DNA from: Polyangiaceae bacterium
GTDB lineage: Bacteria; Myxococcota_A; Polyangia; Polyangiales; Polyangiaceae
Assembly (NCBI GenBank): GCA_016712345.1
Contig: JADJRH010000002.1
Coordinates: 72,466-136,465 of the forward strand
Length of the DNA: 64,000 nucleotides
Reading direction: 5' to 3'
Both the position numbers and the translations under genes were made by a program. Below are positions 4,461 to 58,143 of this stretch, in pieces. The notes under the pieces were generated by a model. The model saw only the letters and a list, made by a program, of their open reading frames with translations, was not told the origin of the DNA and did not search any database. Position 1 is the first letter of the stretch. Every line of letters begins with the position of its first letter.

Positions 4461-6066
4461 CGAAGATGCTCTTTCCAGGGGTGGGCTTGGGGGCGGCGGT
4501 GCTCTTGGGAGCGGTGGAGCCTGCAACTTTTGGTTTGGTGGAAGCGGCAGGGGTTGCAGAAGCTGTTTCGGTGGGTGCGGCAGCAGCGGAGGTTGCGGCG
4601 GATGGCTCTACCGAAACAACTGTCGCGGGACTGGCAGTAGGTGCGGCGGCGGTTTGCACCGCGGCCGCGGTTGACGCTGCGGCGGTGGGTTGTAGCGGTT
4701 GGGATGCGGTCTGTGCGCTTTCTGACTTGTTTGACAAGGCGAAGAAAGCCCCAGCCGCTCCACCGAGAACGAAGAGGGCCACGACCGCAATGAGGAGCGG
4801 TGTTTTACCGGATGACGTGGGTACAGCCGGGGTGGCAAGCACCATGTTGGGTGCGGTGGTGGGTAGGGTTTGGCCTGCCGGTGCGGGTGGGTAGGTTTGT
4901 GCAGAGGGTTGGGTAGGTGGAATGGCAGTGGAACCGGCGGCCGGAGGCACGGAAGGCGCTGTGGAAGCTGCGCGGGCGGGAGGCGGCGCTTCAAGCGCGA
5001 TGGTTCCACCGCGATGGGGAGCGGGCGCGGCATCAATGGCGATTGTTCCTCCAAGTCCAATGGGGGCTTGGGGAGGTGGGTTGCGGGGAGGTGCACCGGC
5101 GACGACAGTATCGAGGCCTGCTGCGCGTGCGATTCGGTCGATATTGGGTTGAGAGCGACTTGGGGCGAAGGGCGCAATGGCGAGAACAAAATCGGCAATG
5201 GTGGGGTAGCGAGCGCCACGATCGCGGGCGTACGCTTTTTCAAGCGCGAGAGCAAACGGTTCGGGTAGATCAGGGCGGGCGACGCGAAGTGGAGTGGGGC
5301 TGCCCGTTAATACTTCGGCGCATAGTTGGGGTAGGGTATCGGCATAAAAAGGTTGTTTGCCGGCGAGCAATTCATACAGGGAGATGCCGAGGGCGTAGAT
5401 GTCTGTCCGGTGATCAACCCCGCGGGTTTGCTGCATTTGTTCGGGCGACATGTAAAGTGCCGAACCCATGGCCGCCGTGGTTTTGGTAAGGTTGTCTGTG
5501 GACTCTTGCATTTTAGAAATGCCAAAGTCGAGGACTTTGACAAGGGAAGATCCGTCGTGACGCCGGGTGAGAAAAAGGTTGGCGGGTTTGATATCGCGAT
5601 GGATGATCCCTGCGGCGTGCGCTTCTGACAGGGCTTCTGCCGCTTGGATGACGTAGTCAATAGCGTCTTGGAGGGCGAGTACACCTTTGATGGTTAACTC
5701 TTTGGCGAGATCATGGCCTTCTAGGTACTCCATGACCATGTAGGGCGAGCCGTTTTCAAGCGTGCCGACGTCGCTTACGCGGGCGACATGTTCACTTTTT
5801 ATTTTGACTGCGGCTTTTCCCTCGCGGAGAAATCGCGCGGCGGCCTCGGGGTGTTGGGCAAACGTGGAGGTTAGAAATTTGAGGGCGACACGGTCGTCGA
5901 GGGCGATGTGTCGAGCCTCGACGACAACGCCCATTCCACCCTGTCCAATGACGCGGTCCACTCGGTATTTGCCGGCCAGGATGGTGCCGGGGGCAACGGG
6001 AGCGTCGTTGACGACGGCTGGGCCGGCGGAAGGAGGAGTGCCTGCGGGATGGGTAGATTGAGTCAT
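4450..6066 (-). CDS. Eukaryotic-like Ser/Thr protein kinase (Hanks type): N-terminal kinase domain, Pro/Ala-rich linker, TM segment and an Ala/Thr-rich tail
   Basis: GQGGMGVVVEARH glycine loop, VALKFL, HRDIKPANLF catalytic loop, DFGISK, MSPEQ activation segment. Confidence 0.9.
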   Translation of the reverse strand: MTQSTHPAGTPPSAGPAVVNDAPVAPGTILAGKYRVDRVIGQGGMGVVVEARHIALDDRVALKFLTSTFAQHPEAAARFLREGKAAVKIKSEHVARVSDVGTLENGSPYMVMEYLEGHDLAKELTIKGVLALQDAIDYVIQAAEALSEAHAAGIIHRDIKPANLFLTRRHDGSSLVKVLDFGISKMQESTDNLTKTTAAMGSALYMSPEQMQQTRGVDHRTDIYALGISLYELLAGKQPFYADTLPQLCAEVLTGSPTPLRVARPDLPEPFALALEKAYARDRGARYPTIADFVLAIAPFAPSRSQPNIDRIARAAGLDTVVAGAPPRNPPPQAPIGLGGTIAIDAAPAPHRGGTIALEAPPPARAASTAPSVPPAAGSTAIPPTQPSAQTYPPAPAGQTLPTTAPNMVLATPAVPTSSGKTPLLIAVVALFVLGGAAGAFFALSNKSESAQTASQPLQPTAAASTAAAVQTAAAPTASPATVVSVEPSAATSAAAAPTETASATPAASTKPKVAGSTAPKSTAAPKPTPGKSIFDDR

Positions 6067-20238: not shown

Positions 20239-21026
20239 GCGGCGCCGTGCAGAGGTTGTTGCGTGTTCCGGTGGAGCGGCTCGTTCCCGGGCCATGTGTA
20301 CTCTCCAAAGAAACGTCGGCGTATGTGGCTCGTGTACACAGGCTTCGCGAGGGTGACGCTGTCGTTGCTTTTGACCCCGAGCAGGCGGTTCAGGCGCACG
20401 CGGTCGTGTTGCGCATCGAAGACGCAGGCTATCGAGTGACGGTCGAGGTGAGTCCACCGGAGCCGGCAACCGTGGTGGCGTCGCGCCGGCTCACGCTGAT
20501 TCAAGCGATCGGCAAAGGGGACAAGATGGATGCGATCGTGCGCGATGCCACCGAACTCGGCGCGACGCACATCGTTCCGGTGATCTCAGAGCGCAGCGTG
20601 GTGAAACTCGGCGACGTGGGGGGGCGCCCGGCGCGATGGCGTCGAATTGCGGTGGAGGCGGCGAGGCAGAGCGGGCGGGGCGACGCGCCGCGCGTCGCCC
20701 CGCCCGCTCTGCTCGCCGCCGCCGTTTCCGAAGTGTACACATCGCCCGCACCCGGTCTTTGCGTGTGCCTCGCGCCGGGCGCCCCCCCGGTCCTCGGCGA
20801 TCTGTTCGCAGCGCTCGAGCCGACCGACGGGGTCACGATTGTGGTGGGCCCCGAAGGAGGCCTTTCGGAAGCGGAAGTGAATTTGTGTACACAATCCGGC
20901 TTCACCGCATGTGGGCTCGGCGGCTTTGTTCTGCGCACCGAAACCGTTTGTGCGGCCGTGCTCGGCGCATTGCTGATCGGCGCGCCGAGCCCCAAAGGCG
21001 CGCGGCAAAGCCCGTCGGATAGGTGA
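20235..21026 (+). CDS. rsmE: 16S rRNA (uracil1498-N3)-methyltransferase, RsmE family
   Basis: 4-bp overlap with prmA. PUA-like N-terminus. LIQAIGKGDKMD and C-terminal GPEGGLS motif. Confidence 0.8.
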   Translation: MSGAVQRLLRVPVERLVPGPCVLSKETSAYVARVHRLREGDAVVAFDPEQAVQAHAVVLRIEDAGYRVTVEVSPPEPATVVASRRLTLIQAIGKGDKMDAIVRDATELGATHIVPVISERSVVKLGDVGGRPARWRRIAVEAARQSGRGDAPRVAPPALLAAAVSEVYTSPAPGLCVCLAPGAPPVLGDLFAALEPTDGVTIVVGPEGGLSEAEVNLCTQSGFTACGLGGFVLRTETVCAAVLGALLIGAPSPKGARQSPSDR

Positions 21027-21062: not shown

Positions 21063-22607
21063 ATGGGTGAGCGCGGGCCGGTGATTGAATGTAGCGACGT
21101 GACAATGCGCTTTGCGCGCACGCTTGCACTCGACGGCGCGTCGGCCGTGTTTTCGCCCGGTGAGATTCATGCGGTTGTGGGAGAAAACGGCGCTGGAAAG
21201 TCGACGCTGCTCAAACTCGCCGCGGGATCGCTCGCGCCGACTTCGGGCAGTGTGGCGGTGGGCGGCGAGCGGCTTCGGCCGGCAACGCCGGCCGAAGCCG
21301 CTCGCCGCCGTGTACTCATGGTCCACCAACATTTCATGTTGGTGGGCGCGTTCACAGCGCTTGAAAACCTAATGCTCGGCAATGAACCGGTGCAACAAGG
21401 CGGTGTACTCAACGAAGCGCGCGCGCGCCGCGAAGTGACGGCTCTCGCCGAAAAAACAGGTCTAACGGTGCCGTTTGATACCGTTGCCGATGCGCTCGGC
21501 GTGGGCGACAAACAGCGCCTTGAGATCCTGCGCGTGCTGTATCGCGGAGCGCTCGCGATTCTTCTCGACGAACCGACGGCGGTGCTCACGCCGCTGGAAG
21601 CCGACGAGCTTTACAAGGTGCTGCGTTCGCTCGCCGATGAGGGGCGCACGGTGGTGATTGTGACGCACCGTTTGGATGAGGTGGTGCGGTTTGCCGATCG
21701 CGTGACAGTGATGCGCCGCGGTCGCACGGTGCTCACCCGGCCTTTGGATCGAGCTTCAAACGCCGCATCGACCGAAGATCTGACGCGAGCAATCATGGGC
21801 CGCGAGCCGCCGCCGCCGTTTTCACCGCCGGATGTGGAGAGCGACGCGAAGATGGCGATCGAGATCCGTGCGCTCGGGTTTCAAGACGCGGCCGGTGTCA
21901 CGCGTCTTCGCGACATCACAATGTCGGTGCGCGCCGGCGAGATCGTTGGGATCGCAGGGGTGGAGGGCAACGGTCAGCGTGAATTGGTGCATGCGATCGC
22001 GGGCCTTTTGCCTTCGTGCTCGGGGTCGATCGCGGTTGCGGGAGAGCCGTTGCCGTTTGATGCCGACGAAGCGCGCGCGATTGCGGCACGGCGATCGGTT
22101 GTGCGCGTTGTTCACGAAGATCGCCACACCGAAGGGCTGCTTCTCGACGCGACGGTTGCCGACAATTTGGTTCTAGGCCAATTGGGTACTGTTTCGCGCG
22201 ATCACGAAGCGGAAGTGGTGAGTCGCCGCGTGAAGAGTTTTGGCATTGTTCCCGCGGATCCGTCGCGCCTCGCGGGCGAACTTTCGGGCGGCAATCAGCA
22301 AAAGATCGTGGTCGCGCGGGCGCTCGATGCCTTTCTTTCAAAAGGTACACAACCCGGTTGTGCGGTGGTGATTTCGCAGCCCACGCGCGGCGTGGATGTC
22401 GGCGCAGCTGCGGCCATTCACGAAGCGATTGGAAAAGCCGCCGCCGCGGGCCTGGGTGTACTCATTGTGAGCGCGGATCTCGCGGAGCTGCGGCAGCTCT
22501 GTCACCGCCTTCTCGTGATTCGAAAAGGGGAGATCGTGGCTGAATTTGCACCGTCGGCTTCGGAAGAAACGATCGGCCGCGCAATGCTCGGTGCGGAGGC
22601 CGCATGA
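21063..22607 (+). CDS. ABC transporter ATP-binding protein with duplicated ATPase domains (CUT2 / BMP-nucleoside type)
   Basis: Walker A GENGAGKSTLLK. Degenerate first signature and a second LSGGNQQKIVVARAL. Two Walker B. Confidence 0.85.
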   Translation: MGERGPVIECSDVTMRFARTLALDGASAVFSPGEIHAVVGENGAGKSTLLKLAAGSLAPTSGSVAVGGERLRPATPAEAARRRVLMVHQHFMLVGAFTALENLMLGNEPVQQGGVLNEARARREVTALAEKTGLTVPFDTVADALGVGDKQRLEILRVLYRGALAILLDEPTAVLTPLEADELYKVLRSLADEGRTVVIVTHRLDEVVRFADRVTVMRRGRTVLTRPLDRASNAASTEDLTRAIMGREPPPPFSPPDVESDAKMAIEIRALGFQDAAGVTRLRDITMSVRAGEIVGIAGVEGNGQRELVHAIAGLLPSCSGSIAVAGEPLPFDADEARAIAARRSVVRVVHEDRHTEGLLLDATVADNLVLGQLGTVSRDHEAEVVSRRVKSFGIVPADPSRLAGELSGGNQQKIVVARALDAFLSKGTQPGCAVVISQPTRGVDVGAAAAIHEAIGKAAAAGLGVLIVSADLAELRQLCHRLLVIRKGEIVAEFAPSASEETIGRAMLGAEAA

Positions 22608-28792: not shown

Positions 28793-28905
28793 CCCATTCG
28801 ATATGGACGCCGCGCCTCAGGTGGCGTGACGTGGCAGGTCGTTGCGGGGCGTTCAATCATTTTCAGTATTGGAGAAAATCGACAGTCACGATAATGCTTG
28901 TGCGC

Positions 28906-29199
28906 ATGGCGAAAAAGACGCAGTCGCACGGGAACAAGACCGCTCAATCTACTGCCAAAAACGCTGCAATGCCGCCCATTCGGCTTGAAACGGTGACATC
29001 GCTTGAGGCCGGTGAGTACACCGACGAGCTGGACCCGTTGGCCGCACACACCAACTCAGCCCGTCCGCCCAATCGGTATGAAGCGCGTCCGCCCAATCGG
29101 TATGAAGCGCGTCCGCCCAATCGGTATGAAGCGCGTCCGCCCAATCGGTATGAGGCGCGCCCGCCCAATCGGTATGAAGTAGTTACTCCCGCGCACTGA
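28906..29199 (+). CDS. Small Lys-rich protein ending in five tandem RPPNRYEA octapeptide repeats (hypothetical)
   Basis: ATG at 28906 in frame with ORF 28645..29199. Coding-like GC3. Overlaps the 3' end of the convergent gene by 17 nt. Confidence 0.35.
   Translation: MAKKTQSHGNKTAQSTAKNAAMPPIRLETVTSLEAGEYTDELDPLAAHTNSARPPNRYEARPPNRYEARPPNRYEARPPNRYEARPPNRYEVVTPAH
29056..29175 (+). repeat. 24-bp perfect tandem repeat x5 (cgtccgcccaatcggtatgaagcg)
   Basis: Five near-identical units read directly. They encode RPPNRYEA on the + strand and GGRASYRL on the - strand. Confidence 0.9.
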
Positions 29200-30175
29200 C
29201 AACGTTCGCCACATCGGTGATGCGCGTCAGCACCCCTGTCTTGAGCCACTTTTGCCGGTTCGCCTTGTTTTTGAGCACCGTTGCACGCTCAAAAAAAAGG
29301 CGTGCCGCCGCTTCCGCTCCCACCTGAGCCAACCTGACAGAAGCCACTTCAAAAAGCGGCGGATTCCACGGCGCCCCCAAAAGCATTTGTTCAGAATAAG
29401 AGCGCACACGCGTTACTTTGCGCCAATAACTTTCAAAGTTAGAATACGGATAGTGTAAAATGGCGGGTGACAAAAATCGCGCTCGACCAAGCCCGTAGTG
29501 CAGCGGAAGGTGAAATCCGTGTGCTCCGGCGGGGAGTGTGCCCCGCCGCGTTTGTACTGCCGCCTTCCCATTGGCGTACGCCAAAAAATAGCCGCCTCGA
29601 TCCTGAAAATAGGGCAGCGCCTCGTCGAGCGCCGACGGGTCAATCCCCCGGGGATTTTTTGTGAAGAGTGTTATTTCAGAAAAGGGCTCTTTGACCGCGG
29701 TGTGTTCACACAGCCCTTCATGATTGTCATAAATGACATACCCAATACCCAATTGACTGAGGCTGTTAAAGTGCTGCTGCGCATCGCTGTTCGGTGGATA
29801 AAAAAGCTCATCACCGTCAATGTGCAAGAGCCATGGCACGCCGTCGGACCGGGCCATTTCAAGGCCGGCTTGCACAACACACAGTTGCCTCGCTGTGAGT
29901 TCATCCGGCGACGCTGCGGGCTTTTCCCAATCACCGGCAAATGGCAGATACGTTTTTTGAAAGTCGTCTTTTGCCATGCGCTTTTGAAGCGCCTTGTTCA
30001 CATGAATAAACCTGACTCCCGCCTCCGAAAAGGGCTTACGTCCGGGTTCGGGTTTGGCGTCAAAAAAGATATAAAAACGCTCGATTCCAATGTGCTTGTG
30101 CCAGTAAATCCACGGTCCAAGATCGGCAGTGGGCGCCCGCACGGTGGTCACAATGGCCACGTTGGATTGACTCAC
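29183..30175 (-). CDS. Putative GT-A fold glycosyltransferase (DxD motif)
   Basis: VAIVTTV...FYIFFD N-terminal strand pattern. LLHIDGDELF DxD-like motif. 330 aa. Confidence 0.4.
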   Translation of the reverse strand: MSQSNVAIVTTVRAPTADLGPWIYWHKHIGIERFYIFFDAKPEPGRKPFSEAGVRFIHVNKALQKRMAKDDFQKTYLPFAGDWEKPAASPDELTARQLCVVQAGLEMARSDGVPWLLHIDGDELFYPPNSDAQQHFNSLSQLGIGYVIYDNHEGLCEHTAVKEPFSEITLFTKNPRGIDPSALDEALPYFQDRGGYFLAYANGKAAVQTRRGTLPAGAHGFHLPLHYGLGRARFLSPAILHYPYSNFESYWRKVTRVRSYSEQMLLGAPWNPPLFEVASVRLAQVGAEAAARLFFERATVLKNKANRQKWLKTGVLTRITDVANVVSARE

Positions 30176-43705: not shown

Positions 43706-45184
43706 ATGACCCTCTCCTTTCGAACCAAACTGCTTGTCAGTTACCTCGGACTGGTGGCTTTTGTAATCGCCGTCACCACGTTTGAACTCAATCGTTCGCT
43801 CGGCGCCGATTTGGTGCGGCAACTGGATGAAAGGCTGATCGCTCAAACCGATGGCGCGATGTTGTGGATTGGGGCGGGGCGGCATCCCAATCGGCTGGCG
43901 GGTAGATTGGCTTCGGTGGTGGGGGCGGAAATTGCCCTGATTGATAAAAGTGGAACGGTGCTTGGGTATGCCGATGCTCGGCAGTCCGTTCTACAAACCG
44001 GAACAGGCGCCGATTCTCCCGATTCAAAACCGCCTTCTTTTCCCGACCAAAACGATCAACCTGAAGTGAAAGGCGCCCGCGCCGCGGGGCGGGGTTTTGC
44101 GACGCGGCTTGGAAACCTTCCCACTCGGACAATGCGGTATGTGGCGGTTTCCAACCCCGAGGGGTTGGTATTGAGACTGGGTGTACCTTTGTCGGGGGTG
44201 GAAGAAACGCTCACAGGGATGCGTCGGCGCCTTCTTTTTGCGGCATTGTTGGCGATGGTGGTGGCTGTGGCGCTCGCGCTCTTGGCATCAAGGGTGATCT
44301 CGGGACCACTGCGCGCTATGGCGGATATCGCGCGGAAAATGGCGGAGGGTGATTTTAAGGCGCAGCCGCCTTCCAATTCTCCCGATGAGCTTGGCGCGCT
44401 TGCAAAGGCGCTCTCCTCCATGGGTAGTCAACTGGAAGCGCGCATTACTGATCTGACTTCCGAGCGTGATCGTCTGACGGCGCTTCTCGGTCAGGTTCGA
44501 AAGCTCGAGGTGGTGCGTCGCGACTTTGTGGCCAACCTCTCGCACGAGCTTCGAACGCCTGTCACAGCCATTCAAGGCTACTCTGAAACGTTGCTCACCT
44601 GTCCAACAGAGCCTGCGACGCGCGAGAAATTTCTGACGATCATCCATCGCAACGCGGAGCGGGTAGGTCGCCTTCTCGGGGATCTTCTTCAACTGTCTTC
44701 CATTGAGGCAGCGCCTGAATCGTTTGAGCCGGAGCCGATTGTATTGAGCGCTCTCGCAGGGCTTGTGGCGCAGACTGTTGAGGAGCGCCGAGTGGAGTCG
44801 AGCGCTCAGATCGATGTGGAGATTTTGCCGGACCTGACAGCGATGGGCGACGCGGGGCGGCTTGAACAGGTGGTTGAAAACCTTGTTGACAATGCCCTGA
44901 AACACGGCGGAAAAGGTGTACGCATTCGCCTGACGGGGGCCAAACACAATGGTCAGGTTGAACTTCGCGTGAGCGACAACGGGCCGGGAATTGCCGCGGA
45001 GCACCTTCCACGCATTTTTGAGCGTTTCTACAGGGTAGACCCCGCACGTTCGCGCGAAAAAGGCGGCGCGGGGCTGGGCCTGGCCATTGTGAAACACCTT
45101 GTGGAAGGGATGGGAGGAAACATTCAGGTCGAGAGCCGCGTGGGCGAAGGCACAACCTTTGTTGTGACTCTACCCGCCGCCTAG
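43706..45184 (+). CDS. PhoR-like sensor histidine kinase (2 TM, HAMP, HisKA, HATPase)
   Basis: LSHELRTPVTAIQGY H-box. DNGPGIAAEHLPRIFERFYR. GGAGLGLAIVKH. Its stop TAG is supplied by the terminus of the adjacent MITE. Confidence 0.8.
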   Translation: MTLSFRTKLLVSYLGLVAFVIAVTTFELNRSLGADLVRQLDERLIAQTDGAMLWIGAGRHPNRLAGRLASVVGAEIALIDKSGTVLGYADARQSVLQTGTGADSPDSKPPSFPDQNDQPEVKGARAAGRGFATRLGNLPTRTMRYVAVSNPEGLVLRLGVPLSGVEETLTGMRRRLLFAALLAMVVAVALALLASRVISGPLRAMADIARKMAEGDFKAQPPSNSPDELGALAKALSSMGSQLEARITDLTSERDRLTALLGQVRKLEVVRRDFVANLSHELRTPVTAIQGYSETLLTCPTEPATREKFLTIIHRNAERVGRLLGDLLQLSSIEAAPESFEPEPIVLSALAGLVAQTVEERRVESSAQIDVEILPDLTAMGDAGRLEQVVENLVDNALKHGGKGVRIRLTGAKHNGQVELRVSDNGPGIAAEHLPRIFERFYRVDPARSREKGGAGLGLAIVKHLVEGMGGNIQVESRVGEGTTFVVTLPAA

Positions 45185-45381
45185 GTGGCTGGTGTTTTTC
45201 GTAACGAGCAGCCCCGATCACGCGTCCGAGCGAGTTGCGAGAGCGCGAAGCGCGAAGCACACCGAGCAGCGCGAAGCGGTGCGAAGGTCACCGGAGCGGA
45301 ACATACGCGGAGTTTTTGAGCACCGGAAGCGCAGCGAGGACGCGTCAGCGGGGCGCGCAGTAGAAAACACCAGCCACCTAG
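45183..45381 (+). mobile_element. MITE-like element copy A (about 197 bp) with 17-bp terminal inverted repeats GGTGGCTGGTGTTTTTC and flanking TA
   Basis: cTA|GGTGGCTGGTGTTTTTCgtaacgagcagccccgatcacgcgtcc...gacgcgtcagcggggcgcgcagtaGAAAACACCAGCCACC|TAg. The interior is a long imperfect palindrome. Contains an extra about 56-bp gcgcgaagc-rich insert relative to copy B. Confidence 0.75.
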
Positions 45382-46181
45382 AATTTGGCTCCCACAGAAA
45401 TGGACCCCAAACCGAAGTTGACCTGAATTTTGCTCGTGGTCTGGCTGAATCGCTCGCGGATCCGTGTCATGTCACTTTTGGCGCTGGCTGCGATGAGTCC
45501 AGCAACGATCATCCCCGCGGCACCGAGGGCGAAAAACGCGCCGCTGGCTGCTTGTGCCCCTTCATCGGGATTGCAGCTCGAAAAAATGCCACATCCGCGC
45601 GTACTACCCACGGCGAACATGAGCACCCCGGCGAATGCCACTCCACCCCCAATTCCAACCACAATGAGAGAACCAATTCGCCGTGCGCGAGCACTCGCGT
45701 ACTCCGGTATCTCACGCAACCTCATTTCAAGTTGTTTGTCAAAGCCCTCTTTTTCGTCCCGCTTTTGTTTTTCATCAAACGCGTCCATGTACGCGGCGCC
45801 TGCTGGATCTACCACGGCAGGTTGAACGTACGGACTTTGACCGCCGGGAGGCGGCGGGTAGGGGTAAGGGTAGGGGTAAGGGTAAGGCGCGGCGGTTGTT
45901 GTTGGGTAGGTGGATGGGTAGGTTGGAGCCGTTGCTGTTGGAGCGGCAGATGGGTAGGTTGTTGCTGCAGGCGGAGGAGGCGGCGGGAGGAACGGCGCGT
46001 TTGGAACTTGGGGCGGAGGCGGCGGGGGTAGGTCGTCGGCCCAAGCGCTGCTGCCGAAACTCCCGGCGAAGGTCAGGACTAAGCCCAGTCCAACGGTTGC
46101 GCGAACAATTGCGCACCCTGCGCGACGGGTGTCACGTGAATTCTCCAAAGCGAGACGGGATCGAGCCGTTTTCAGGGTCAT
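45378..46181 (-). CDS. Proline/tyrosine-rich membrane protein (YPYPYPYPYPPPP tract) with a signal peptide and C-terminal TM helices
   Basis: Likely start MTLKTARSR. Signal ...VGLGLVLTFAGSFGSSAWADD. Its stop is supplied by the MITE-A terminus (ccaccTAG). Confidence 0.5.
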   Translation of the reverse strand: MTLKTARSRLALENSRDTRRAGCAIVRATVGLGLVLTFAGSFGSSAWADDLPPPPPPQVPNAPFLPPPPPPAATTYPSAAPTATAPTYPSTYPTTTAAPYPYPYPYPYPPPPGGQSPYVQPAVVDPAGAAYMDAFDEKQKRDEKEGFDKQLEMRLREIPEYASARARRIGSLIVVGIGGGVAFAGVLMFAVGSTRGCGIFSSCNPDEGAQAASGAFFALGAAGMIVAGLIAASAKSDMTRIRERFSQTTSKIQVNFGLGSISVGAKF

Positions 46182-46429
46182 GTATTCAGCGACAGCAAGC
46201 CCTGCGCCAGCCATCGATACCTGGTGGATGAATGCACCGGGGGGGTGGATCGCTTGCAGTCCATATCCAAGTTCCAGGCCCAAGGCGACAGCCTCAGCCT
46301 ACCCTGTTTCGGCGGCTATACTGGACGATTCCAGCATTTTCGAAACAATCGGTGGAGAGAGCCCCCACCATCCACTTGGCCCACCGGTTGCACCACGCAT
46401 CTCGGCCTCTTTTGAAAGGCAGGCACGGC

Positions 46430-47620
46430 ATGCGACGGATCTCGATGTTCTTTGGCCTTCTCGTCAGCTCCGCGCTCGCGATCACAGCGTGCGAGTCGGC
46501 GCCCGGCCCCAGCCCTTCGCCGAACGATACCGACGATAAGCCTTCCGTCCCCACGCCCGAAAACCCCGAGGCAACGCGCCCCGAGGTAACCCATACGGTG
46601 TTGGATGATCGGGTCAAAGATTACAACGAGGCGCTTCGCACAGCCTCGCTCAAGCTGCTTCGCGCGCTTCCTACCCTTCAACAAATCAAGAAGGTAGCAA
46701 ATGCGGCCGACCCCAAGCGCGCGTACGAAGAAGAACTCGACGCAATGTTGGATGATCCGCGTTTTACAGACCGCATGATCAAGTTTTGGCGCGATACAAT
46801 GCGTATGGGCGGCGGCGCGGCCGATGGTAAACCCAGCCGCAACACGGCCCCCAACTTGGCCGCGCGCATCACGGTAGAAGGTCGCCCCTTTACAGATCTG
46901 TTCACCTCACCTTCCAACAACTGCCCCGAATACGACGGCACCAACAAAGTCTTTACCGACGGTGAGTGCAACGGCGGAGCGCCTGTGGAGGCGGGTGTAC
47001 TCTCCAACCCAGGTGTACACTACCAATTCTACGGAAACATGGCTTTCCGCCGCGTGCGCTGGGTGCAAGAAGTGTTCGTCTGCACCAAGTTCCCGGCCGA
47101 GTACAGCGACAAACCCATTTCCAAAAACGGCGCGGATTATATGTCGCCGTGGCCGTTTGAGTCGATCGCCACAAGCCCGATTGACTTTCAAGATACCAAG
47201 AGCGTTGTGTGCGCCAACTGTCACACAACCATCAATCACGTGGCGCCCCTGTTCGCAAACTTTGACGCAAACGGCATGTGGCAAAACGAAATCAGCGTGA
47301 TGACCCCCACTGTCGATCCACTCAAGTCAGAGCTTTCTCACTGGCTCAACCCGGGAGAAACTCTTTCCTGGCGCTTTGGTGAACCCGTCAAAGATCTGGC
47401 CGAGCTGGGTCAGGCAATGGCGGCCGATCCCGATGTGAATGAGTGCGTTGTGTCGCGGCTCTACAACTTTGCCATGTCCAAAGAAGACATCGTGAACGAT
47501 CTGGCCACCGTGCCTTATGAAGTTCTCGATGAGTACATGATCACCTACTATCAAAATGGTCTAAACCTGAAGACCACGCTCAAAGCGATCTTCAGCAGCG
47601 CCGATTTCGTGCGGTTTTAG
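46430..47620 (+). CDS. Lipoprotein with a CxxCH (c-type haem-binding-like) motif; resembles the Planctomycete-type PSCyt/DUF15xx partner of a DUF1501-like protein
   Basis: MRRISMFFGLLVSSALAITAC lipobox. VVCANCHTTINHV. RBS-like aaagg upstream. Confidence 0.5.
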   Translation: MRRISMFFGLLVSSALAITACESAPGPSPSPNDTDDKPSVPTPENPEATRPEVTHTVLDDRVKDYNEALRTASLKLLRALPTLQQIKKVANAADPKRAYEEELDAMLDDPRFTDRMIKFWRDTMRMGGGAADGKPSRNTAPNLAARITVEGRPFTDLFTSPSNNCPEYDGTNKVFTDGECNGGAPVEAGVLSNPGVHYQFYGNMAFRRVRWVQEVFVCTKFPAEYSDKPISKNGADYMSPWPFESIATSPIDFQDTKSVVCANCHTTINHVAPLFANFDANGMWQNEISVMTPTVDPLKSELSHWLNPGETLSWRFGEPVKDLAELGQAMAADPDVNECVVSRLYNFAMSKEDIVNDLATVPYEVLDEYMITYYQNGLNLKTTLKAIFSSADFVRF

Positions 47621-47637
47621 GAGAAGAGGAGCAAGCC

Positions 47638-48375
47638 ATGAAGACGACCCCGATCGTGATTTCGGCGCTCGCCATCGCTTGCGGCCTCTCGGCCGCAGCC
47701 TGCGATTCGCGACCTGACACGTTAACCCCCAAGCCTCACAGCCCATATCAAGAAAACCCCACCAACAACGTGGAAGAAAAACCGGGCGCGTTTGCCGGTG
47801 GCCAAGACAACACGTTTGACCATATGGCGGGCCTCGGCGACGACGCTCCCAAAGACGCGTTTGAAGTTCTCCAGCAACGCGAAGAAGAAGGCCCGGCCGA
47901 AATTCGAACCCGCCTTCACTCGTGTCAGAAAATTCAGGTGACCACCCTTCGAAACATGCTTTCGAGCCTTGGGGTGAACCTTGACGCAACGGGCAATCCA
48001 CCCACCGCGGGTCAACTTCTCAAAGAAGGAACCGGCGCCCTCGGTGCCGCCAACTACGACGCCCGCGTGGGTGAAACAATTGTTTGGACGGCGGCCGGCG
48101 CGGCGAAGCTGTTCGACATCTTCGTTCAAGCGGCACCTGAAATTATTGCCAACCTTCCCAACATGCCTCAATGCCAAATCGACGGCGTTGGCGTTCAGCT
48201 CTTTGACGAGAACAACGTGTGTGTGGCCGACGGCATCACCTGCATCATCGGTCGCCCCGCAACCCCGGAGCATGTGGCCATTTGCAACAGCGTGGTCAAC
48301 AACGCTTCGAGTATTGAGAATGGCAAGAACATTGCAGTCGCTACCATTCTGAGTGCGGCGCACTCCTGCGAGTGA
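47638..48375 (+). CDS. Hypothetical lipoprotein
   Basis: MKTTPIVISALAIACGLSAAAC lipobox. 245 aa. No motif recognised. Confidence 0.5.
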   Translation: MKTTPIVISALAIACGLSAAACDSRPDTLTPKPHSPYQENPTNNVEEKPGAFAGGQDNTFDHMAGLGDDAPKDAFEVLQQREEEGPAEIRTRLHSCQKIQVTTLRNMLSSLGVNLDATGNPPTAGQLLKEGTGALGAANYDARVGETIVWTAAGAAKLFDIFVQAAPEIIANLPNMPQCQIDGVGVQLFDENNVCVADGITCIIGRPATPEHVAICNSVVNNASSIENGKNIAVATILSAAHSCE

Positions 48376-48388
48376 AACGGAGAACACC

Positions 48389-49777
48389 ATGGTTGACGAA
48401 CGCCTGAAGAATCTGGAAGGTCGCTCTCGCCGAAACTTCCTCCGTTGGGCAACCACCGCCGGCGCGGTGTTGGCCCTAGATCGAGCCAAAGTGTTGGACG
48501 TGATTTCCGACACCGGCGGCTCCGCCCTTGCCGATGAGGGTAGCTGCGCTCTCACCATGCGCTCGGTTCATTTGGTGGCAGGCGACGGCGGGTTTGCCTG
48601 GTTCCAACTCCTCTGGCCGCATGTTGAAATCGCCCGTTCAGGCAATGGTGGGTTTGCCTACCATCGTTTCGGCGAGTCAACCAAAGCCGTCGATACCGAC
48701 AAAGACTTTGAATTTTCGCCTGAAAGTCCGTGGCAAGACATGGATAAGGGCAAGCGCATCAGCGCTTTCATGGCGGGTACAAATCAAACCCATACCCCCA
48801 CCCCGGGCTCGGCAGCTCAACTGGGTGGTGGAACAAGCATGCTTGCCGCGTGCGCAGCCATTCAGCGCGCCACACCTTCCCTCCTCCCTGTGATTGGGGT
48901 TGACCCGGTTAACTTCGGCACGGCCAAAGGTGCACCTGACATTGCCACGGTGGGTGATGCCGATGGGTTGGTTCAGCTCTTCAACAGCGCCGCTTCACGC
49001 GCGATTCTGAGCCTTCCGCAAGATGCCGCCCTGTACGAGGCGTATTACAAAGCGTTCCTCGGTCTGAACAAAGCGGCCTCGCGGCCCACCGTTCAACGCC
49101 CGCTCCGCATTGGTAAGACGAGCGCCAACTTCCTCGGTCAAAACCTTGCCAAAGATCTCGAACCGTCGGCCGACGATCTCCAACGGTTTGGAATCAACGG
49201 TGGTACACCCAACAAGCTCGCTCAAATTGGTCGCATTCTCATTACCGCTTCCAAAGCCTTCAAAAAGGGCCTTACCCAGAGCGTCATCCTACCCGCCATG
49301 CGCGACGATCCGCACGGCGCTTTCCAAGATATGAACAACCTGCGCGACACGGTTGGACTGCTTGGGAAGATGCTTGACCAGTTCTTGAAAGACCTGGCAG
49401 AAGTACAAGATCCGCTCTGTTCTACCCGTACAATCGCCGACGACGTGGTTCTCACTGTTCACGGCGATACACCAAAAGATCCGCGCGATCGCAGCGGTTG
49501 GCCCGATGGTACACCTGCCAACGCCAACTGGCTTTATGTCATGGGCAACGGTTACCTGAAAACCGGTTGGTTCGGCGGCGTGCGTGAAAACGGCAACGTT
49601 GACGGGTTTGACCCGACAACCGGCGCCAACGTCCCCGGTCAACCCGCCAATGCTACCAGCGATGCCGCAGGCGCCGCTGTCGCGTTTGCTGTGGCCAAGG
49701 GCGACATGAAACGCGTTCAAGAGTTTTATACCGGCCCCTCCATTGACGGTATCGTCAACATCAACCCCCTCCAGTAG
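48389..49777 (+). CDS. Tat-signal protein of the DUF1501/DUF1552-like (sulfatase-fold-like) family
   Basis: GGAGAA RBS then MVDERLKNLEGRSRRNFLRWATTAGAVLAL twin-arginine signal. About 460 aa. Confidence 0.6.
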   Translation: MVDERLKNLEGRSRRNFLRWATTAGAVLALDRAKVLDVISDTGGSALADEGSCALTMRSVHLVAGDGGFAWFQLLWPHVEIARSGNGGFAYHRFGESTKAVDTDKDFEFSPESPWQDMDKGKRISAFMAGTNQTHTPTPGSAAQLGGGTSMLAACAAIQRATPSLLPVIGVDPVNFGTAKGAPDIATVGDADGLVQLFNSAASRAILSLPQDAALYEAYYKAFLGLNKAASRPTVQRPLRIGKTSANFLGQNLAKDLEPSADDLQRFGINGGTPNKLAQIGRILITASKAFKKGLTQSVILPAMRDDPHGAFQDMNNLRDTVGLLGKMLDQFLKDLAEVQDPLCSTRTIADDVVLTVHGDTPKDPRDRSGWPDGTPANANWLYVMGNGYLKTGWFGGVRENGNVDGFDPTTGANVPGQPANATSDAAGAAVAFAVAKGDMKRVQEFYTGPSIDGIVNINPLQ

Positions 49778-49813
49778 TACCCAGTCCTGAAAGAAGCGGC
49801 AGAGGCCACGCCG

Positions 49814-50782
49814 ATGGCCAGGGTGTTCGCGTCCTGTTTTGCCGCTTCTGTCTGTGCGTTTTCACTTGTCGGCTGTGGTGAATCCCGGGCGAATACCCAT
49901 CAAGGCGCCGTTGTGTTTGGCATCACGTCCGACTTTCAGCCCGGGCCTGATATCGCACGTCTCCAGGCTGACCTTCAAGTGGAGGAGGGCGCCGTCAAAA
50001 CGCTTGTGTGGGCGGCTGGAAAAACGCCCGAACTAACCTTCCCATTGGAAGTGAGAGCCGAAAACGGCGCGGCCGACGCTCTTGTAACGCTCCGTTTGTC
50101 TGGGTATGAAGGGTTTGGTTCCGCCGAAATCCCCTTTGTTGAGCGAACTATTTCTACCCATTTTGTTGCAGAAAAAACGCTCCTTGCCCGCACCCATTTA
50201 GAATGGGAATGTGTACCCAATTACCACTTACCGGGCGGCGATTTGGCGCCGATCTGTAAACCACCCCTCACCTGTGTGGCTGCTGAATGTGATGACCCGT
50301 TTGTTGAACCTTCCCACTTAGAAGTGTACACACCAAACTGGTTTTCAGATTTTGCCGACGCGTGCCGACCTGAAGGTGCCGGCCCACCGGAGGTAATGGT
50401 AGGTCAGGGGCTTGAAACGTTTTCACCCCTCTCGCCAGCGGCACCCCTCATGATGGAAAAAGGCTCACAGGGCGGCTACCATGTTTGGATTGCTCTGAGG
50501 CAAAAAAATTTGCACCAAAAGGGCTCTTATACGTCCGTTTCAATAGAGCGAAACGACACGCTTGAAGAGCTTTGTGCGGTTGAAATTCCGTGGGATTTTA
50601 CCCCCATTGGAGACGGGGAGGTCGGGTGCGAGCTGGCCGGCATTCGATGTGTTGTGAGTTACGATGCTGCTGCCGCCGCCGCCCTTACCGGTAAAGAAGT
50701 GGTAGTCAAAGCAAGGGTAGTAGACCTATTGGGTGATGTGGGGTTTGGAGAGCAGGCAACCATGTTGACCCCACCTCCTTAG
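49814..50782 (+). CDS. Hypothetical secreted lipoprotein
   Basis: MARVFASCFAASVCAFSLVGCG lipobox. Its stop TAG is supplied by the MITE-B terminus (ccacctccTTAG|GTGG). Confidence 0.5.
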   Translation: MARVFASCFAASVCAFSLVGCGESRANTHQGAVVFGITSDFQPGPDIARLQADLQVEEGAVKTLVWAAGKTPELTFPLEVRAENGAADALVTLRLSGYEGFGSAEIPFVERTISTHFVAEKTLLARTHLEWECVPNYHLPGGDLAPICKPPLTCVAAECDDPFVEPSHLEVYTPNWFSDFADACRPEGAGPPEVMVGQGLETFSPLSPAAPLMMEKGSQGGYHVWIALRQKNLHQKGSYTSVSIERNDTLEELCAVEIPWDFTPIGDGEVGCELAGIRCVVSYDAAAAAALTGKEVVVKARVVDLLGDVGFGEQATMLTPPP

Positions 50783-50923
50783 GTGGCTGGTGTTTTTCTA
50801 CTGCGCGCCCCGCTGACGCGTCCTCGCTGCGCTTCCGGTGCTCAAATACGCAGAGTATGTTCCGCTCCGGGTCTCGCTCGGACGCGTGATCGGGGCTGCT
50901 CGTGACGAAAAACACCAGCCACC
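50781..50923 (-). mobile_element. MITE-like element copy B (about 141 bp), inverted relative to copy A, with the same 17-bp terminal inverted repeats
   Basis: tTA|GGTGGCTGGTGTTTTTCtactgcgcgccccgctgacgcgtcc...gggctgctcgtgacgAAAAACACCAGCCACC|TAg. The reverse complement aligns along its length with copy A, minus the 56-bp insert. The spurious ORFs 45192..46031(+) and 50706..50915(-) both begin MFFVTSSPDHASER. Confidence 0.75.
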
Positions 50924-50936
50924 TAGCACCTACCCA

Positions 50937-52637
50937 TCAGCTCTTGGCTTTTTTGCGCCTCCTTCGGGCAACACTTTGTAAGACGTTGCGCAGGTCGGTC
51001 ACGTCAAAAGGTTTTTCAATGTGCTTGTTGGGCACACTTTCGAGAAACTCGGCGGCGTGTTTGGTGAACGCTCCACCTGTCATAAATACCATGGCATCCA
51101 ACAATTCAGGCGCGTTGTGAGCTACCCACGCGTGAACCGCCATGCCCGATACCTCCGGCATCATCAGGTCGCACAAAATCGCATCAAACGTGCGGTCACT
51201 TTGCAAAACTTCAAATGCGTGTTTACCCGACTCTACAAGAGTCACATCAAAATGTTCTTCCAGGAGCACTTGCAACGTGGCGCGCAGGGTTTCTTCGTCG
51301 TCGACAACAAGAACTCGGGCCTTTTTCTCCTCATACGTGTGGGAGCGTGAACTCACGGGGTTGGGAGTGGGCCTGTCGTCACTGTTTCCAATGGGTAGGC
51401 GGAGTATAAATTCAGAACCTTTTCCAAGTTGGCTCTTGACGTCAATACTACCACCGTGGCTGCCAAGAATATCCCGGCAAATAGAGAGCCCGAGGCCAGA
51501 ACCTTGACCCTTTTGTTTGGTGGTAAAAAACGGGTCAAACAAGCGCGGCAAGTTCTCCGGCGCAATCCCATGCCCTGTGTCTGAAATAGAAACGAAGACT
51601 TCTGCACCCGACTGCCATGTTCGAATGTGAACCCGATTGCGCTCTGGAGCCCCCTCGTCAATTGCGTGCGCCGCGTTGACAAGCAGGTTGAGAAATACCT
51701 GCGATAAGCGACCTTGATTGGCTGTGATTGCCTGAATTGGTCCGAGGTCTTTTTCAACAGTGGCCCGAAATCGCAACTCGTTTGCCGCCAAATCGAGCAC
51801 TTTTTCGAGCAGGCTATTTACGTCGACTCCCGCGCGTTCATCGTTTTCAACCCGCGCAAAAGCCGTGAGGTCGCGTGCAATGCGGCCCACCTGGCGAGCC
51901 CCATCGGTGGCTGTATCCGCGCGCTGAGCGAGCATGTCAATTGTCAGAAGGGCTTTTTGCACACCGCTTCGCGCAAACAGTCGGTTGGTTTTTTCAACTC
52001 CAAGTTCAGACTCCAAGTCATCTTTGAGACGTGAAAGCGCGCCCCCGATGGAGGGCAGATCGGCGCGCAGTCGCTCCAGATTCAAGAGCACATAGGTAAT
52101 TGGATTGTTGACTTCGTGGGCGACACTCGCGGCCAGCAATCCCATGCTTGCCAATCGGTCGCGTTGGGCAAGCTCCGCCAAAAGCTGCCGCTTTTCGGAA
52201 ACGTCGGTGGCAATCGCCGCAATTGCGGAGTTGCCTTCCCATGTCACTTCTACGCCGGCTACCTCGGCCAAAAACACAGATCCGTCGCGCCGGAGCAGCC
52301 GCCGTTCACGAAAAGGTGCCGAAGCGCGCCGCTCTTGAACGTCGCGCACTCTCTGTATGCTTGAATCGCGCTCATCCGGGTGCACGAGATCAAACGAGTT
52401 CGTGCCAACCAGCTCCGCCGCCGAACTGAAACCGTGCATGCTGGCAGCAGCGTGGTTTGCGTACGCAATCTTTCCATTGCGATGCACCAGCACCGCGTCG
52501 GGCAAGGCGTCCATCAGCGCTCGAAAGCCGTGCTCCGCGTTCTTTTCGGAATGCGGCGTTTCGTCGGGGCGTTTGCCCTGGGGACTTTCGGCGGCGTTCG
52601 CCTGCCCAACCTCGTCGGTTTGGTGTGGGTTCGACAT
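50937..52637 (-). CDS. Hybrid sensor histidine kinase (PAS, HisKA, HATPase, C-terminal receiver)
   Basis: PAS LMDALPDAVLVHRNGKIAYAN. H-box ASVAHEVNNPITYV. GSGLGLSICRD. Receiver VLVVDDEETLRATL...DLMMPEVSG. Confidence 0.8.
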   Translation of the reverse strand: MSNPHQTDEVGQANAAESPQGKRPDETPHSEKNAEHGFRALMDALPDAVLVHRNGKIAYANHAAASMHGFSSAAELVGTNSFDLVHPDERDSSIQRVRDVQERRASAPFRERRLLRRDGSVFLAEVAGVEVTWEGNSAIAAIATDVSEKRQLLAELAQRDRLASMGLLAASVAHEVNNPITYVLLNLERLRADLPSIGGALSRLKDDLESELGVEKTNRLFARSGVQKALLTIDMLAQRADTATDGARQVGRIARDLTAFARVENDERAGVDVNSLLEKVLDLAANELRFRATVEKDLGPIQAITANQGRLSQVFLNLLVNAAHAIDEGAPERNRVHIRTWQSGAEVFVSISDTGHGIAPENLPRLFDPFFTTKQKGQGSGLGLSICRDILGSHGGSIDVKSQLGKGSEFILRLPIGNSDDRPTPNPVSSRSHTYEEKKARVLVVDDEETLRATLQVLLEEHFDVTLVESGKHAFEVLQSDRTFDAILCDLMMPEVSGMAVHAWVAHNAPELLDAMVFMTGGAFTKHAAEFLESVPNKHIEKPFDVTDLRNVLQSVARRRRKKAKS

Positions 52638-57806: not shown

Positions 57807-57870
57807 CAAGTCTATAACTTCAGCCGCCTCGCAACGACCTGAAATGCCCTGCCACCTGACGCGTCGTAAT

Positions 57871-58048
57871 CAACACGGAGGCACAGAGATCACGGAGTTC
57901 CACGGAGTTTTTTTGTATTTTAGGCTGCAATAGGCTCGCACGGCGTCGTGCATCACCTGTCTGGCTTGCGATTGTGGATGATGTGTACCCATAGCAGCCA
58001 AAGAAACAAAAAACTCCGTGTTCCTCCGTGTTCTCCGTGATTCCGTGG
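57871..58048. repeat. Inverted-repeat element built from heptad arrays: three CACGGAG repeats + T7 on one arm, and A6 + three CTCCGTG repeats on the other arm about 100 bp away
   Basis: caaCACGGAGgcacagagatCACGGAGttcCACGGAGttttttt ... caaaaaaCTCCGTGttcCTCCGTGttCTCCGTGattccgtgg. The arms are reverse complements of each other. Intergenic between guaD and the BNR-repeat gene. Confidence 0.7.
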
Positions 58049-58143
58049 TGAAGAGACGTCACAGGCATCCAAACGCGTTCAGTCGTTGCGTGGCGGCGTC
58101 GGTTGTAGTGGCCATTTGTCGGCCTCTGGACTATTCGAGCCGC

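Follow-up and report, generated by a model that had tools for sequence, protein, structure and literature searches.

The insertion sequence (IS) IS630 uses CTAG as its target and duplicates the TA, and the Correia elements of Neisseria are TA-flanked palindromic miniature inverted-repeat transposable elements, known as MITEs, that lie between genes, for which promoter, RNase III and terminator effects are documented. In the IS1182 family, IS1272 of staphylococci favours palindromic targets near gene ends (PMC5678879). In the literature collection that we searched, we found no description of a CTAG target for IS1182 members, nor of MITEs in Myxococcota. Here we analysed a 64,000-nucleotide stretch of a Polyangiaceae bacterium genome (contig JADJRH010000002.1; this whole stretch is hereafter called the window), in which two inverted MITEs, copies A and B, bracket a 5.4-kb block of genes. 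We consider it highly probable that both are IS1182-type MITEs that were mobilised in trans and inserted separately at NTAG with duplication of the TA, and that the bracketed block was resident. The window elements resemble IS1182-family ISs (NCBIfam NF033551; e.g. the 1848-bp element of Polyangium fumosum) in their termini (16-17 of 17 positions), their CTA...TAG flanks and their Polyangiaceae host, but they are only 142-195 bp long, lack a transposase gene, have an unrelated palindromic interior and would depend on a transposase acting in trans. They share the transposase family of IS1272 but, unlike it, follow a strict C-TA-G rule with TA on both sides; the Correia elements are unrelated in sequence and host. 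Five MITEs with the same terminus from other genomes (loci L070, L001, L038, L044 and L089) have the same 17-bp ends, TA flanks, size class and palindromic build, whereas their interiors cannot be aligned with the window copies, and each lineage seems to carry a MITE derivative of its own.

As shown in Table 1, the terminus GGTGGCTGGTGTTTTTC occurs in the window as an exact 17-mer at three of the four element ends and with two mismatches at the right end of copy A, so that the shared 17-bp termini described in an earlier note on this sequence match in full at three ends and at 15 of 17 positions at the fourth. None of 100 shuffled windows gave five or more matches to the terminus with up to three mismatches allowed, and TA lies directly outside all four ends. 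When copy A (plus strand) was aligned end to end with copy B (minus strand), 136 of 141 aligned bases were identical (96.5%), besides a 54-bp indel, where copy A has a 56-nt stretch of its own with GCGAAGC repeats, located at the palindrome's apex, and copy B has 2 nt; at one terminus the A-run also differs by 1 nt. Each copy is shorter than 300 bp, has no coding capacity and forms a long, imperfect palindrome. The earlier note had read the locus as an inverted, TA-flanked MITE pair with common 17-bp termini and palindromic interiors that align along their full length apart from extra sequence in copy A, and this description agrees with the terminus search, the flanks and the alignment. The pair itself is real and belongs to an apparently undescribed MITE family that is otherwise ordinary. 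A contig derived from the SRA that is identical to the window ends 27 nt inside copy B, which fits the assembly break expected in repeated sequence.

The family assignment comes from a scan for the 17-mer in one genome per species (185,579 species), which returned at least 114 loci; the counts that follow are among the matches listed. TA flanked 80 of 117 exact matches, and 73 of 77 unique TA-flanked ends carried C at position -3, giving the junction C-TA/GGTGG (the slash marks the element boundary), with TTA (2 of 77, as in copy B) and GTA as the minority flanks. The matches without TA came from unrelated taxa, in a number close to a hand-made estimate of chance for a 17-mer. Elements delimited by paired ends were either short (101-220 bp) or full-length (1.8-2.0 kb), with flanks of CCTA...TAGG or similar. 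The full-length elements, found in Actinomycetota and Chloroflexi, encode proteins of ~520-610 aa; the transposase of an actinomycetotal element (L016) scored 292 bits, above the 270-bit cutoff, against NF033551 (the NCBIfam equivalog 'IS1182 family transposase') and matched the Pfam families DUF772, DDE_Tnp_1 and DDE_Tnp_1_6. Homologues of this transposase were present at ~30 further loci, and plasmid homologues in RefSeq are annotated 'IS1182 family transposase'.

Among the loci listed in the species scan, those of Myxococcota held no full-length element: they had short elements or fragments at contig ends, and two of these fragments start a reading frame matching the transposase N terminus. 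A Myxococcales-type metagenome contig recovered with a Myxococcota fragment as query (L127) contained a complete element at 132-2154 flanked by CCTA..TAGA; its left end matched contig-end fragments of a Myxococcales metagenome-assembled genome (MAG), and its 604-aa transposase scored 306 bits against NF033551 and shared 57% identity with the protein from Actinomycetota. When this transposase was used as a protein query, it led to a contig of Polyangium fumosum DSM 14668 (L128, SSMQ01000176.1) whose 1854 bp are exactly one element of 1848 bp, reading CTA-GGTGACTGGTGTTTTTC ... AACACCAGCCACC-TAG and encoding a transposase with an NF033551 score of 333 bits. The genome of the same isolate also carries a 101-bp MITE (L070) with perfect termini and CCTA..TAGA flanks; autonomous and miniature forms with the IS1182-type terminus coexist in Polyangiaceae. 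Further, MAGs of Polyangiales and Haliangium contained MITEs of 101-206 bp with the same ends and unrelated interiors. The termini of the window copies are those of the elements in L016, L127 and L128, and copy A obeys the CTA flank rule. We therefore suggest that TA-flanked palindromic repeats of this kind in Polyangiaceae be assigned to IS1182-type elements and not to IS630. That one 17-bp terminus with one CTAG rule occurs in Actinomycetota, Chloroflexi and Myxococcota gives a modest hint of spread across phyla, which would concern a single IS1182 subgroup among soil bacteria. At four loci from Myxococcales, Polyangiales and Pseudomonadota MAGs (L012, L032, L048 and L060), the 17-mer lacked TA flanks and was followed by a common sequence, ..GCTGGCC.GT..GACTGCAC.GCCGA, unrelated to the MITE and IS interiors, which may represent another kind of repeat or part of a conserved gene.

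In the mechanism that we propose, the 17-bp termini would be the ends at which IS1182-family insertion sequences are bound and cleaved, and an IS1182-type transposase encoded outside the window would have acted on them in trans. Each copy would have inserted separately at NTAG (CTAG for copy A, and TTAG for copy B, whose left flank has T at -3), with duplication of the central TA. Because the element starts with G and ends with C, every junction would then read TA/G inward on either strand; a stop codon TAG that contained the target TA would be rebuilt unchanged. Insertions into convergent spacers of near-zero length would be harmless and would hence persist. Direct reading of the sequence bore out that the TAG stops of the three flanking genes use the flanking TA and the terminal G of the element. 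The elements were also said to supply these stops, and here the reconstruction disagrees: the probable sites before insertion (CCGCC-TA-GAATT and CCTCCT-TA-GCACC) already contain TAG in the frames of these genes, and the element preserves the stops rather than supplying them. When copy A was removed with one TA taken as the duplication, the sequence became ...GCC GCC TAG AAT TTG... and kept the TAG of the histidine kinase, the minus strand (AAA TTC TAG) kept that of the Pro-rich protein, and the two stops overlapped in a single CTAG. Removal of copy B gave ...CCT CCT TAG CAC..., with the lipoprotein stop unchanged. At site A, an allele without the element would be expected to read ...CCGCCTAGAATTT..., and at site B ...CCTCCTTAGCACC... 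Consistent with these reconstructions, the three stop-overlapping proteins end within ~1-3 residues of their orthologues, and none is truncated or extended.

A preference of insertion for stop codons, which the earlier note had raised, divided into two parts: the TA target stood, as part of CTAG, and the enrichment at stops did not. The window contains 16 CTAG sites, against 233 expected from base composition (~14-fold under-representation), and MITE junctions account for 3 of the 16. We scored the element ends in the fetched loci for closing an open frame of at least 100 codons and did likewise for the other CTAG sites in the same loci. An in-frame stop was found at 18 of 67 element ends (27%) and at 116 of 534 other CTAG sites (22%; Fisher p = 0.35). 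The overlap with stops thus follows from CTAG being the target, with no further preference detectable. With three of its four ends at stops, the window lies near the top of the range, which reflects its two very tight convergent gene pairs. A previous comparison of open-frame lengths had given a weak excess for the TAG frame (23 versus 14 and 11) and was superseded by the CTAG-site control; a coding-frame classifier based on GC content by codon position was dropped, as it misclassified known genes of the window (~58% GC). Overall, the TAG overlap is best read as a by-product of the target site and not as a functional signal. At one locus of a Polyangiales MAG (Co_metawrap_2065; L039, 1-330), two different MITEs with the same terminus abut and share a single TA (..CCAGCCACC-TA-GGTGGCTGG..), which fits insertion into the CTAG created at the end of an earlier insertion.

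The origin of the bracketed block was examined by gene order. The Tat-signal protein has many homologues in Polyangiaceae, and we compared contexts for relatives at 72-89% protein identity; the terminus and the MITE were absent from all loci fetched from these relatives. In the MITE-free relatives, the bracketed genes lie between the same neighbours, namely the genes for a response regulator (RR), a histidine kinase (HK) and MscS on one side and those for a hybrid kinase and a sulfatase on the other. The order in L119 was sulfatase(-), hybrid kinase(+), 322-aa lipoprotein(-), Pro-rich(-), PSCyt(+), lipoprotein(+), Tat(+), four extra genes, HK(-), RR(-), MscS(+), compared with sulfatase(-), hybrid kinase(+), copy B, 322-aa lipoprotein(-), Tat(-), lipoprotein(-), PSCyt(-), Pro-rich(+), copy A, HK(-), RR(-), MscS(+) on the reverse strand of the window. 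Because the outer neighbours are identical, the 5.4-kb block is, judged by synteny, native and resident chromosomal DNA, not imported. The synteny comparison thus showed genes and neighbours kept without MITEs, but not their orientation: the segment with the Pro-rich gene and the three-gene core is inverted in the window. The left breakpoint falls exactly at copy A (45378-45380), and the right one within a 36-bp gap (49778-49813; the breakpoint reads CAG-TAG-TAC), in which we found no MITE remnant and no repeat. In the closest relatives (L116, L124, L125, L117 and L118), the Tat gene converges on the HK gene, so the window arrangement is derived; copy B lies at an unrearranged ancestral junction. 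Two candidate causes of the inversion, recombination between copies A and B and intramolecular replicative transposition, were rejected, since each predicts that the 322-aa lipoprotein gene is inverted as well, and it is not. A third copy, since lost or relocated, could account for the inversion, which is speculation. The inversion ending at copy A is a small example of a rearrangement that coincides with a MITE.

Two of the alternatives concern what the elements are and what they have moved. The earlier note had derived them from IS630/Tc1-mariner transposons, whose MITEs make a TA duplication, as proposed for the window elements; the TA flanks are indeed present, and the C-TA flank rule agrees with the IS630 target. 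However, no element among the full-length ones recovered carried an IS630-type (DDE_3) transposase together with the GGTGGCTGGTGTTTTTC terminus, and the full-length elements with matching ends were of IS1182 type instead. Every full-length element with this terminus is 1.8-2.0 kb long and encodes a DUF772/DDE_Tnp_1/DDE_Tnp_1_6 protein above the IS1182 cutoff (292-333 bits), whereas IS630 and Tc1/mariner elements have a different transposase family, autonomous forms of ~1.1-1.2 kb and unrelated termini; we regard this derivation as extremely improbable. It is also quite unlikely that the 5.4-kb block was moved or inverted by the two inverted copies, whether as a composite transposon or through recombination between them, as the earlier note had partly envisaged. 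The inverse orientation of the copies and the inverted segment with one breakpoint exactly at copy A are in its favour, as is a locus (L030) in which two inverted MITEs with the same terminus surround a yraN gene with TA at the outer ends only. Yet the MITE-free relatives keep the block genes between the same neighbours, the 322-aa lipoprotein gene inside the bracket keeps its ancestral orientation beside the hybrid kinase, copy B sits at an ancestral junction and the other breakpoint lacks a MITE remnant, while TA at all four ends is what two separate insertions predict. As an observation in its own right, the L030 pair (5113-5826 of an uncultured Polyangiaceae MAG; ~125 bp per copy) flanks a single yraN-like gene, has good termini as well as TA at its outer ends only, overlaps the TAG stop of the upstream gene with its terminus and could be a small composite unit.

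The remaining alternative concerns function, namely that the hairpins were co-opted as bidirectional terminators or RNA-stabilising structures between convergent genes that lack a spacer. Both copies are placed between convergent genes, and the gaps hold no other terminator. The predicted RNA folds are very stable, with minimum free energies of -106.3 kcal/mol for copy A (z -5.6 versus shuffles) and -85.5 kcal/mol for copy B (z -7.9), and a consensus scan caught small hairpins formed by flank plus terminus and followed by CTGGTGTTTT. The same scan was overall at chance (9 terminators found versus 9.8 expected), a hairpin follows automatically from MITE architecture, and relatives manage without one. 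The suggestion in the earlier note that the elements act as terminator hairpins was upheld for hairpin stability and not for the U-tract, which is absent after the full hairpin on both strands (the tails UAGAAUUUGG, UAGCACCUAC, UAGGCGGCGG and UAAGGAGGUG contain no U-run). An Rfam scan of the whole window found no family at the gathering score. We consider a role of the hairpins in termination or RNA stabilisation possible but unlikely.

Several observations weigh against insertion of IS1182-type MITEs in trans with TA duplication. On insertion, IS1272 takes the place of target stem-loops, and no duplication results (PMC5678879); ISPse1, also of the IS1182 family, makes a 4-bp repeat (PMC3281130). 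Duplication of all 4 bp of CTAG with a terminus one base shorter leads back to the identical sequence before insertion. TTA and GTA, as minority flanks, speak for TA over CTAG duplication, and we infer CTAG as the target with TA duplicated. We found no empty site among relatives (the nearest at ~70-76% DNA identity) or SRA contigs; the SRA-derived contigs L115 and L126 were each filled or truncated at the MITE sites. The 64-kb window contains no IS1182-type transposase or autonomous element, and mobilisation in trans would have occurred within the source genome. The blastn comparison of both copies with all fetched loci, the 114 genome loci among them, gave no match to the interior beyond the termini, a scan of JGI metagenome contigs for the MITE arms (terminus, gap, then CCCCGNTNACGCGTCC) gave 0 matches, and with two documented copies the mobility of the window MITE is deduced from structure. 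The insertions are likewise presumed to be neutral.

A broader extension of the proposed mechanism, in which stop codons serve as a safe harbour for an IS1182 subgroup and its MITEs, is improbable. The target CTAG is ~14-fold depleted, and the terminal G...C would rebuild TAG on both strands. Each insertion would turn one CTAG into two and thereby seed abutting arrays (e.g. L039), a lost or relocated copy would have made the 4.4-kb inversion at the overlapping stops of two genes, and this copy, after a hop of 1 kb, may now be copy B.

Table 1. Elements, genes and rearranged segment at the locus (window coordinates)
Feature	Position	Strand	Details
MITE copy A	45184..45378	+	195 bp; from sequence reading, terminus search and alignment
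Copy A left terminus	45184-45200	+	17/17 match to GGTGGCTGGTGTTTTTC
Copy A-specific stretch	45235..45290	+	56 nt; GCGAAGC repeats, palindrome apex; 2 nt in copy B
Copy A right terminus	45362-45378	-	15/17 match to GGTGGCTGGTGTTTTTC (2 mismatches)
Copy A TA flanks	45182-45183 and 45379-45380		
MITE copy B	50782..50923	-	142 bp; inverted relative to copy A
Copy B termini	50782-50798 and 50907-50923	+ and -	both perfect GGTGGCTGGTGTTTTTC
Copy B TA flanks	50780-50781 and 50924-50925		
Inverted segment	~45381..49777		Pro-rich gene and three-gene core; opposite to both flanks compared with all close relatives
HAMP-HisKA-HATPase histidine kinase	43706..45184	+	TAG stop 45182-45184; its G is the first base of copy A
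Pro/Tyr-rich membrane protein	45378..46283	-	TAG stop 45378-45380; its G is the last base pair of copy A
Three-gene core	46430..49777	+	CxxCH protein, 245-aa lipoprotein, Tat-signal protein; conserved across Polyangiaceae
322-aa lipoprotein	49814..50782	+	TAG stop 50780-50782; its G is the first base of copy B
PAS-HisKA-HATPase-receiver hybrid kinase	50937..52637	-	TGA stop 50937-50939, 13 nt outside copy B

Among the bracketed genes, the CxxCH protein matched PSCyt2, PSCyt3 and PSD2. The Tat-signal protein, which had been labelled DUF1501-like, gave no Pfam match at E <= 0.01, and the label was not confirmed.

Other repeats were present elsewhere in the window. At 29058-29201, a 24-nt unit in five to six tandem copies apparently encodes an RPPNRYEA repeat of eight residues close to the end of a small open reading frame starting at ~28907. 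At 57870-58051, a 182-bp sequence has 44-nt inverted arms at its ends (82% complementary) that are rich in CACGGAG motifs and finish in T/A runs; it could represent a further MITE-like element, or else a terminator acting in both directions. A 39-nt sequence forms an inverted pair, 79% complementary, at 28813-28851 and 57825-57863, one site adjoining the former repeat and the other the latter. In addition, a 51-nt unit is present in three tandem copies at 759-917, and two perfect GC-rich palindromes with 23-nt arms lie at 20666-20712 and 21261-21309.

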